DNA of 20,900 bases from Candidatus Polarisedimenticolia bacterium. Lineage in GTDB: Bacteria > Acidobacteriota > Polarisedimenticolia > Gp22-AA2. Below, piece by piece: positions 5,818-6,810 of the stretch. The notes beneath the pieces were generated by a model, which was not told the DNA's origin, searched no databases, and was given only the letters and a program-made list of their open reading frames with translations. Numbering within the stretch: the stretch's first letter is position 1; each line of letters opens with the position of its first letter. The stretch lies in contig DASTNM010000133.1 of assembly GCA_035762745.1 (NCBI GenBank), positions 1-20,900 of the forward strand, written 5' to 3'. Both the position numbers and the translations under genes were made by a program.

Positions 5818-6810
5818 CTACTCCCGCCGCGCGCGCCTGATCGCCATCAGGGTCAGGTCGTCCCCCTTCGGCGACCCGGCCCGGAAAGCGGCCAGGTCGT
5901 CCAGGCAGGCGTGGAGCAGCGCCTTCGGAGCCAGTGCGTGCCGCTCCGCGGCCAGACGCGCCAGGCGCTCGGCGCCGTACTCGGCCTGGGCGCGGTTGCG
6001 CGCCTCGCTCAGGCCGTCGGTGTAGAGCAGGAGCGCGTCGTCCGGCTCGAGGTGGTGCGTCGCGACCGGGTACCCGCCGCTGCAGAAGAGGCCGAGCGGC
6101 AGCCCGGTTGCCTCGATGGCCAAGACGCGTCCGCGGCGCACCAGGAGCGGCGGCGGGTGGCCGGCATTGCAGATCTCCACCCGCCCCGAGCGGTCGGCAC
6201 GCCCGCACACCAGGGTGGCGAAGTGCGCCGACGGGAGGCTCTCGCAGAAGAGACGGTTGGCGCGCTCCATCAGGCCGCTGACCGGCAGACCCGTGCCGAC
6301 CAGGGTGCGCACGATGGCGCGCAGGCCGGTCATGAGCATCGAGGCGGCCACCCCCTTGCCCGAGACGTCTCCGATCAGGAAGAAGAGATCCCCGCCGTCG
6401 CCGTCCGAGGCGACCAGGTCGCAGTAGTCCCCGCTCACTTGCGACGCCGGCTCGTAGTGGTAGGCGGCCTCCCAGCCGCCGAGACGCAGATCCTGCTTCG
6501 GCAGGAGACCGTTCTGGACCCGGGCCGCGAGGTCGAGGTCGCGCTCGAGGGCCCGGCGCTCCGCCGTGTTGAGGTGGTCGAGGCAGGTGCGGATCAGCGG
6601 GTCGACCATCAGGCGGTCCTCCTCGATCGCATCGTGGCAGCTCTCGCACTTCCCATACGAGCCGCCGTCGATCCTCACCAGGGCCGCGTCGACCTCCTCC
6701 AGCAGTTGCCTGAGGTGCGCGGCCTCCGGGGCGCTCTCGAGGGCGGTCTCGATGCGCGCCCGGCGGTCGCGCAGCTCCGCCTGGAAATCGGGTTGTCCTG
6801 AGATCGCCAT
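5818..6810 (-). CDS. PP2C/SpoIIE-family serine phosphatase (RsbU/RsbP-like) carrying an N-terminal DksA/TraR-type C4 (here C3H) zinc finger.
   Basis: The C-terminal ~240 aa show SpoIIE/PP2C hallmarks: 'SGDYCDL', '[21 protein letters not shown]', '[10 protein letters not shown]' and '[11 protein letters not shown]'. N-terminal residues ~45-85 ('[37 protein letters not shown]') align residue for residue with the DksA/TraR zinc-finger consensus (YGxCExCGxxIxxxRLxAxPxAxxCxxC) as I recall it. The best start is ATG 6810 ('MAISGQ…') with GAGGAGGA at 6815-6822; the track's ATG 6834 is 8 codons further upstream. Stop TAG (revcomp 5818-5820). Confidence 0.8.
   Translation of the reverse strand: [330 protein letters not shown]

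Follow-up and report, generated by a model that had tools for sequence, protein, structure and literature searches.

A DksA-type zinc domain joined to an RsbU-type phosphatase in a Polarisedimenticolia bacterium and its relatives

Phosphatases of the RsbU type start general-stress and other sigma-factor responses, and their N-terminal domains set the signal that is read. A 20.9-kb stretch of DNA from Candidatus Polarisedimenticolia bacterium (contig DASTNM010000133.1, positions 1 to 20,900, referred to below as the window) contains at 5818–6810, on the minus strand, a gene in which the place of such an input domain is taken by a zinc finger of the type found in DksA and TraR. The question raised by this locus is whether the fusion is real and shared by other bacteria and, if so, by which route the finger could act on the enzyme. 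Our analysis confirms that the gene is a genuine fusion of a DksA/TraR-type zinc-finger domain and an RsbU/SpoIIE-type PP2C phosphatase, and that it belongs to a large and conserved family.

The gene and its two domains

The open reading frame (ORF) runs uninterrupted on the minus strand and, as seen from the ORF list and the sequence, encodes 330 residues beginning with MAISGQ and terminates in a stop codon at 5818–5820. Its in-frame ATG codons lie at 6834 and 6810, the former of which would add eight residues to the product. A GAGGAGG motif read off the sequence at 6816–6822 (minus strand) is separated by 5 nt from the ATG at 6808–6810, and the N-termini of 23 homologues line up with the MA... 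start at this codon and not with the ATG at 6834: this indicates that the 330-residue product is the one made. Since the ATG preceded by this ribosome-binding site (RBS) is upstream of the finger, as a first-pass annotation of the sequence had held, the zinc finger cannot be removed by choosing a later start. A database protein identical to the product is listed by NCBI as 'SpoIIE family protein phosphatase [Candidatus Polarisedimenticolia bacterium]', and the AlphaFold model of the full-length phosphatase has a mean predicted local distance difference test score of 89 and a predicted template modelling score of 0.76. The gene is organised as follows.

5818–6810, minus strand: whole gene of the DksA-like zinc-domain/PP2C phosphatase, 330 residues (ORF, Pfam, AlphaFold)
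6816–6822, minus strand: Shine-Dalgarno sequence GAGGAGG (sequence; homologue N-termini)
6664–6786, minus strand: residues 9–49, short helical hairpin matching the DksA coiled-coil base, with helices 9–26 and 31–49
6568–6663, minus strand: residues 50–81, predicted zinc knuckle with C55, C58, C76 and H79, and with H59 directly after the second cysteine (Pfam PF01258)
6499–6567, minus strand: residues 82–104, modelled as one helix combining the DksA C-terminal helix and the alpha-0 phosphatase linker (AlphaFold; RssB alignment)
5821–6498, minus strand: residues 105–330, PP2C (SpoIIE/RsbU-type) catalytic domain (Pfam, Foldseek, phmmer)

The C-terminal part had been described as an unambiguous SpoIIE/PP2C domain of the RsbU kind, and the profile searches bear this out: Pfam assigns residues 138–326 to SpoIIE (PF07228) with a score of 174 bits (cut-off 25; E 4.3e-51). 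The top Foldseek matches are 3ke6, which is the RsbU domain of Rv1364c from M. tuberculosis (32% identity, E 3e-17), RssB, SiaA, SpoIIE and RsbX, with E values to RsbU-type domains from 1e-17 to 1e-13, and phmmer relates the phosphatase to 3ke6 with an E value of 1e-21. Six acidic residues, D128, D131, D148, D265, D317 and D318, do not vary among 67 homologues and are matched by identical aspartates in the aligned Rv1364c; from the motifs and from general knowledge of the PPM family we take them to be the metal ligands. As these six residues are invariant, the phosphatase is expected to be active. Conserved cysteines are unusually numerous in the catalytic domain. One of them, C130, never varies and lies between the invariant D128 and D131 in the motif SGDYCD, and C189, C202, C214 and C302 are 88–96% conserved; this domain might itself be redox-sensitive.

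In the N-terminal part, Pfam PF01258 (zf-dskA_traR) matches residues 50–78 with 31 bits, above its gathering score of 24.9 (E 2.5e-7), and the spacing C-x2-C-x17-C-x2-H pointed out by the first-pass annotation is present. The NCBIfam models DksA_like, yteA and dksA match residues 31–85 via their C-terminal ~55 positions only, their scores being far below the family cut-offs (41.3 vs 105, 38.8 vs 134 and 32.9 vs 115 bits, respectively), as is that of TraR (18.2 vs 59.7 bits). A profile built from the N-terminal 105 residues and compared with the PDB retrieves four DksA structures, 2kq9 (3e-9), 1tjl (6e-8), 4ijj and 6ptg, within an E range from 3e-9 to 6e-7, and nothing significant beyond these four. 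Because it is this profile that finds DksA structures, the homology to DksA is wider than the finger and covers hairpin, knuckle and C-terminal helix; indeed, all three elements that define the DksA fold, that is, coiled-coil hairpin, zinc domain and C-terminal helix, are present. In the ungapped hidden Markov model (HMM) alignment a DksA residue number is that of the phosphatase plus 59, C114, C117, C135 and C138 corresponding to C55, C58, C76 and H79. The finger residues, together with Y52-G53, R66-L67 and P71, are all invariant or at least 90% conserved among 67 homologues, in agreement with the flanking Tyr-Gly, RL and P that had been noticed from the single sequence. The two hairpin helices (9–26 and 31–49) comprise ~18 residues each, which corresponds to a coiled coil of about half the DksA length, and the tip loop (residues 25–32) is the most variable stretch of the domain. 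Among the conserved residues of this domain many are charged, namely R16, R17, E39, D41, R46, E63, R66, D70 and D78.

The connection between the two domains has a fixed length in the family. AlphaFold models residues 82–101 as a single helix, which carries the motif A87 L88 xx D91 L92 x L94 A95 xxx Q99 xx L102 L103 P104, and residues 83–104 align to the linker between receiver and PP2C domain in RssB of P. aeruginosa. According to the model, the DksA C-terminal helix thus runs unbroken into the alpha-0 linker of the phosphatase. In RsbU-type phosphatases the linker governs dimerisation and the alpha-1/alpha-2 switch, and a crossing linker helix has been proposed as the general conduit of signals from diverse sensor domains (PMC12143880). 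Of 86 sequences, 82 have a finger-to-LLP distance of 49 residues; the remaining four, whose finger loop is one residue shorter, have 48. From LLP to SGDY the distance is 24 residues in 86/86. Mean pairwise identity is highest in the finger (71%) and the linker (67%), followed by the catalytic domain (60%) and the hairpin (51%).

A large family in abundant soil and sediment bacteria

The prevalence of the fusion, which the first-pass annotation had suggested to look up, turned out to be high. The 120 best database relatives are 56–68% identical and ~328 residues long, and both Pfam labels are already attached to most of them. When one genome per species was scanned, at least 587 confirmed relatives (loci) emerged, and among the best 80 of these, 78 match from residue 12 or earlier and 2 from residues 21 and 30, at 49–61% identity. 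All 87 family ORFs inspected have the finger followed by PP2C, at least 87 species having been checked directly. Given that the architecture recurs in these 87 ORFs and that the N-terminal profile finds DksA structures, the finger match is not due to chance. The main carriers are Acidobacteriota (Terriglobia, Blastocatellia/Pyrinomonadaceae, Vicinamibacterales, Thermoanaerobaculia and Aminicenantes), and outside this phylum the family is found in Ignavibacteria/Bacteroidota, Zixibacteria and Acidimicrobiia (Actinomycetota). Closed acidobacterial genomes with the gene include OY969701.1 and OY969475.1.

An exhaustive profile search with the N-terminal domain gave 571 protein clusters (50% identity level) at E <= 1e-10. 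Among the matches listed, all but one of those above 300 residues are 307–354 residues long, which is the size of the PP2C fusion (both domains are Pfam-confirmed in P0240 only), and those of 300 residues or fewer appear to be metagenomic fragments. A word-index search with residues 1–104 yielded nothing but truncated members of this family and is uninformative on other architectures. The one long match of the profile search outside the size range of the fusion, a metagenomic protein of 511 residues (P0249), has an Ada_Zn_binding domain, an AraC helix-turn-helix and an MGMT DNA-binding domain, followed by the truncated DksA-like domain (mini-DksA) at 386–477, after which it ends: it is probably a read-through or a truncated gene call, and could also be a second architecture of the mini-DksA domain.

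The DksA-finger phosphatase is therefore a large conserved orthologous family, which is not rare and is already visible in databases, yet is uncharacterised. A survey of the inputs of RsbU-type phosphatases published in eLife in 2025 names PAS, receiver, GAF, HAMP and RsbU-N only, which is the list of usual inputs the first-pass annotation had given, and no description of a DksA-finger/PP2C architecture was found in the literature searched. The claim that the architecture was undescribed holds in this respect, but both Pfam labels were already public and fused fingers as such are known, dksA/traR fingers joined to TYPP (TSR3-related) domains having been noted in 2014 by Burroughs and Aravind (PMC4275035). 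The DksA-type zinc domain is thus a previously undescribed class of input domain for RsbU-type phosphatases.

With this family a zinc-finger input, which is a reused piece of an RNA polymerase (RNAP) regulator, is added to the known repertoire. The bacteria that carry it are abundant in soils and sediments, and hardly any work has been done on their signalling. Domain shuffling on RsbU-type phosphatases is to be expected; it is the reuse of the fold, its strong conservation in little-studied phyla and the shared helix that make the family a worthwhile target. A small single-chain protein with one helix shared by two domains offers a compact test case for the linker-transmission model.

From the zinc site to the phosphatase

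In 67 sequences C55, C58 and C76 never vary, whereas residue 79 is His 62 times and Cys 5 times; among the 87 family ORFs it is His in 70, Cys in 10 and Asp in 7. Swaps at this position are confined to metal-ligating residues, which is the pattern expected of a metal site, and the N-terminal knuckle presumably binds zinc. The redox-switch motif H-x3-C-x2-C of ZAS proteins is absent, the residue four positions ahead of C55 being Ser51, and Pfam detects no anti-sigma domain in the 330-residue phosphatase. The histidine that follows the second cysteine, His59 (6634–6636, minus strand), creates a CxxCH string in ~80% of the relatives, at a position where DksA has Gly. It is kept in all seven species with Asp79, which is not significant given the 80% background retention, and it could act as a spare fourth ligand or make a contact between the domains. 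A c-type haem site, which a CxxCH string may call to mind, was considered and rejected: the protein shows no sign of an N-terminal extension or a signal peptide, 17/86 relatives lack H59, and matches to cytochromes in the PDB reach E values of only ~0.1–1.

Sensing of zinc or redox state, one of the two functions that the first-pass annotation had put forward, is plausible. We tentatively favour a zinc-dependent, possibly redox-sensitive input module that gates the RsbU-type phosphatase, while estimating the chance that the entire chain of inference holds at somewhat below even. According to this proposal the protein would be a cytoplasmic RsbU/SpoIIE-type phosphatase whose regulatory N-terminus of ~100 residues is a truncated DksA fold, and it would dephosphorylate a phospho-serine partner-switching substrate, the best candidate in the genome being Ser56 of the STAS protein encoded next to it. 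In the reduced, zinc-bound state the metal would hold C76 and H79, where the linker helix begins, against C55 and C58, where hairpin helix 2 ends, and such a clamp could fix the geometry of the linker and with it the dimer or switch conformation of the phosphatase; oxidation of the thiols or loss of zinc would free this constraint and change the activity. Because the zinc site would clamp the N-terminus of the linker helix to the hairpin, the state of the finger is expected to reach the alpha-0 linker. Oxidation or zinc loss is preferred as the signal because the DksA finger is an established thiol switch in Salmonella and E. coli (PMC4850274, PMC6294903), and because the phosphatase is rich in cysteines. 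The protein would not act as a transcription factor in the secondary channel, as DksA does. The analysis establishes the architecture, the fold, the conserved set of ligands, the junction of fixed length, the intact catalytic residues and the spread of the family among phyla; what we infer is that zinc is bound, which substrate is used, whether redox state or metal is the signal, and in which direction activity is regulated. If the finger is such a thiol or zinc switch, the phosphatase would be a one-protein transducer from redox state to phosphorylation.

Several observations weigh against this proposal. The fourth ligand is mostly His, and Asp in some species, so that redox activity is lower than at the Cys4 site of DksA from enteric bacteria; no gene related to redox functions recurs next to the phosphatase, the neighbourhoods being unrelated across 89 loci; and beyond the window, adjacency to STAS is seen in only one of these loci, L081, in which the STAS protein is non-phosphorylatable. 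Neither an RsbW-type kinase nor a sigma factor was found within the 20.9-kb window. Moreover, the zinc could be purely structural.

The leading alternative, which we regard as somewhat less likely than the zinc switch, is that the mini-DksA domain senses neither redox state nor metal: it would be a dimerisation platform or a docking site for an activator protein, comparable to the docking of RsbT on the N-domain and linker of RsbU, and zinc would do nothing but hold the fold. Zinc knuckles are mostly structural, and a fourth ligand that alternates between His, Cys and Asp suggests selection for metal binding and not for thiol chemistry. The paradigm of RsbU itself is the ordering of the linker by a partner (PMC12143880), fused DksA/TraR fingers have been read as protein-protein interaction modules (PMC4275035), and the many conserved charged residues of the N-domain may form a docking surface. 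However, no conserved neighbour gene that might encode such a partner appears in 87 clustered loci, and the DksA fold is not known to bind partners other than RNAP, or DnaJ when oxidised.

RNAP itself could be the partner, a possibility that we consider decidedly improbable: the retained globular part of DksA, together with the base of the coiled coil, would bind the beta' rim helices at the entrance of the secondary channel, and the phosphatase would be recruited or activated by RNAP, so that removal of phosphate from an anti-sigma antagonist would be coupled to the polymerase. All characterised members of the DksA/TraR fold bind RNAP, and the strong conservation of the N-domain across phyla (full-length identity of 49–61% between Acidobacteriota, Ignavibacteria/Bacteroidota and Zixibacteria) would agree with a universally conserved partner; in addition, L36 (L95 in DksA) and R66-L67 (R125-L126) are invariant. 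Against this, a coiled coil of such length could not extend as far as the active site, and the sequence at its tip is not conserved. In E. coli DksA the coiled-coil domain spans residues 33–108 and has D71, D74 and A76 at its tip, whereas the corresponding DxxDxA motif is found in only 2/67 sequences of the phosphatase, in one of them at the tip. Nothing in the N-domain of the phosphatase corresponds to residues 1–32, the N-terminal part of the G domain in DksA. Basic residues of the rim-helix contact and of the pocket for guanosine tetraphosphate (ppGpp) are replaced: ppGpp site 2 of DksA is formed by K98, R129, K139, R91 and L95 (PMC7676912, bioRxiv 10.1101/188680), and in the HMM alignment two of these become acidic (K98 to E39, R129 to D70) and one Leu (K139 to L80), R91 falls at a variable position and only L95 is retained, as L36. 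Finally, DksA requires its C-terminal helix for binding RNAP, and in the phosphatase family this helix is absorbed into the PP2C linker and has no free end.

An action in the secondary channel in the style of DksA, the role with which the first-pass annotation had associated such fingers, is therefore disfavoured by the sequence comparisons, because the coiled coil is halved, its tip unconserved, the ppGpp site replaced and the C-terminal helix built into the linker. Docking at the rim of the channel, by which RNAP would recruit the phosphatase or switch it on, retains in our judgement a small chance; if true, a partner-switching phosphatase would be in direct physical contact with the transcription machinery, which would represent a novel form of coupling. 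The family as a whole suggests roles for the DksA fold beyond the secondary channel.

That finger and phosphatase are separate genes joined by faulty annotation or assembly, or that the true start is 3' of the finger, is hardly conceivable: read-through artefacts in metagenome gene calls do exist, as P0249 with its Ada-like protein apparently joined to mini-DksA illustrates, but nothing else favours this explanation, and it is ruled out by the homologue N-termini and the fixed length of the junction, as well as being contradicted by a single unbroken ORF with an RBS, by the ~328-residue architecture in 87 independently assembled family ORFs without an indel at the junction, and by one continuous AlphaFold helix across it.

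Genomic surroundings and comparison with known systems

The phosphatase gene (5818–6810, minus strand) is convergent with TyrS (4477–5748, plus strand) and is separated by a gap of 320 bp from a divergent STAS gene, which is followed by an operon.

7131–7472, plus strand: divergent single-domain STAS gene, 113 residues (Pfam STAS; PDB matches)
6989–7018, plus strand: sigma-70-like promoter match TTGACC-18-GAGAAT (consensus scan)

The promoter match lies in the 320-bp divergent gap, 5' of the STAS gene, and is a match to the consensus only (1 site vs 0.0 expected). The 113-residue protein is recognised by Pfam as STAS, with PDB matches to SpoIIAA, Thermotoga TM1081 and anti-sigma antagonists of the RsbV type, and Ser56, in its IDSSGMG motif, falls in the alignment on the serine of the DSSG motif in SpoIIAA, which is the phosphorylated Ser58 of that protein. 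The adjoining STAS protein is thus a credible candidate substrate of the phosphatase, the link being drawn from adjacency alone. In a word-index search of 5.8 billion proteins it returned only itself. The STAS gene is located ~130 bp 5' of the probable start of the complex-I-like operon described below, on the same strand, and the two may be co-transcribed.

Apart from this STAS gene, the components of a partner-switching module are not found nearby. RsbW/SpoIIAB queries gave no match among the ORFs of the window, no HATPase domain occurs among the ORFs scanned with Pfam, and no sigma-factor domain was detected in the 20 main ORFs scanned in the same manner; the window extends over 20.9 kb, and a gene for an RsbW-type kinase may be located elsewhere in the genome. 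Of six relatives with Pfam-annotated surroundings none has a STAS or RsbW-type gene within 6–8 kb of the orthologue. All-versus-all clustering of the ORFs of 87 loci revealed no recurrent neighbour beyond lineage-specific synteny (for example TyrS and RadC), and genes of 252, 252 and 279 residues that adjoin three of the homologues are not homologous to each other. When 89 loci were scanned for STAS with phmmer, L081 was the only one with such a neighbour: in this metagenome-assembled genome of Acidobacteriaceae a STAS gene (5424–5849, plus strand) lies directly 5' of the orthologue (~5947–6957), on the same strand, and since EAGG replaces DSSG its product is non-phosphorylatable. The family is typically orphan, without a STAS/RsbW/sigma operon nearby. 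The first-pass label of a partner-switching phosphatase is consequently a presumptive one: a phosphorylatable STAS gene does adjoin in the window, but this is almost never so in relatives, and the window itself lacks an RsbW-type kinase and a sigma factor.

The block ADH, PurM-like, PurN, RadC, TyrS and phosphatase (21–5748 of the window up to the phosphatase) is syntenic with three loci, L005, L006 and L087, probably contigs of Polarisedimenticolia-like organisms. The other flank of the phosphatase varies, being occupied by STAS in the window, by a weakly GNAT-like gene of 279 residues in L005 and by a 220-residue protein in L087 and L088; this last protein, encoded 5' in both loci, has a hydrophobic N-terminus resembling a signal peptide, looks secreted and is conserved only between these two.

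Downstream of STAS, a seven-gene operon at 7485–14839 (plus strand) resembles the membrane complex of a group-4 [NiFe] hydrogenase or of formate hydrogenlyase, with NuoB-like, two antiporter-like and NuoH-like genes and a fused 30-kDa/49-kDa large subunit. The large subunit (~13259–14839) has zero CxxC motifs and RISGDTSIGH at the expected NiFe-binding site, presumably the position of the N-terminal NiFe-binding motif RxCGxCxxxH, while the NuoB-like subunit retains its cluster cysteines. Judging from these motifs, with no CxxC in the large subunit and RISGDTSIGH in place of the NiFe motif, the complex is probably an Ehr/Mbx-like relative of complex I and not a working hydrogenase. Immediately after this operon, the gene at 14870–17911 (plus strand) encodes 1013 residues with a type I phosphodiesterase/nucleotide pyrophosphatase domain (195–498) and a long C-terminal array of tetratricopeptide repeats.

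When set beside systems that are already known, the phosphatase combines features of several of them. A precedent for the fusion as such is offered by the TYPP proteins (PMC4275035), in which the finger was likewise recruited as an N-terminal accessory of a larger enzyme; their partner, however, is an RNA-modification domain, and no continuity between finger helix and linker has been described for them. With the DksA thiol switch, which belongs to a regulator of stress responses, the phosphatase shares a homologous zinc-cysteine site, and the oxidation that alters DksA activity (PMC4850274, PMC6294903) provides a precedent for the proposed mode of regulation; the site in DksA is a Cys4 site in an RNAP-binding factor, whereas here a Cys3-His site is predicted and the output would be phosphatase activity.

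Compared with DksA/TraR proteins in general (E. coli DksA 1TJL, DksA2 of P. aeruginosa 4IJJ, Chlamydia 6PTG and A. tumefaciens 2KQ9), the CxxC-x17-CxxC/H spacing and the YG, RL and P residues are the same. Contrary to these, which are stand-alone proteins of ~70–150 residues, the phosphatase has a coiled coil of about half the length, lacks both DxxDxA and the N-terminus of the G domain, usually has His as fourth ligand and has its ppGpp residues replaced and its C-terminal helix fused to the catalytic unit.

With the RsbU/RsbP/SpoIIE-type PP2C enzymes it has in common the catalytic domain, the invariant acidic residues and a layout in which the regulatory module is N-terminal and PP2C is C-terminal; its linker motif LxxDLxxAxxxQxxLLP is homologous to the linker of RssB. 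In the window a phosphorylatable STAS gene adjoins the phosphatase. It differs from these enzymes in that the gene is usually orphan, in the invariant cysteine of SGDYCD and the further conserved cysteines, and in its input, which is a DksA-type zinc domain instead of RsbU-N, PAS, GAF, HAMP or receiver.

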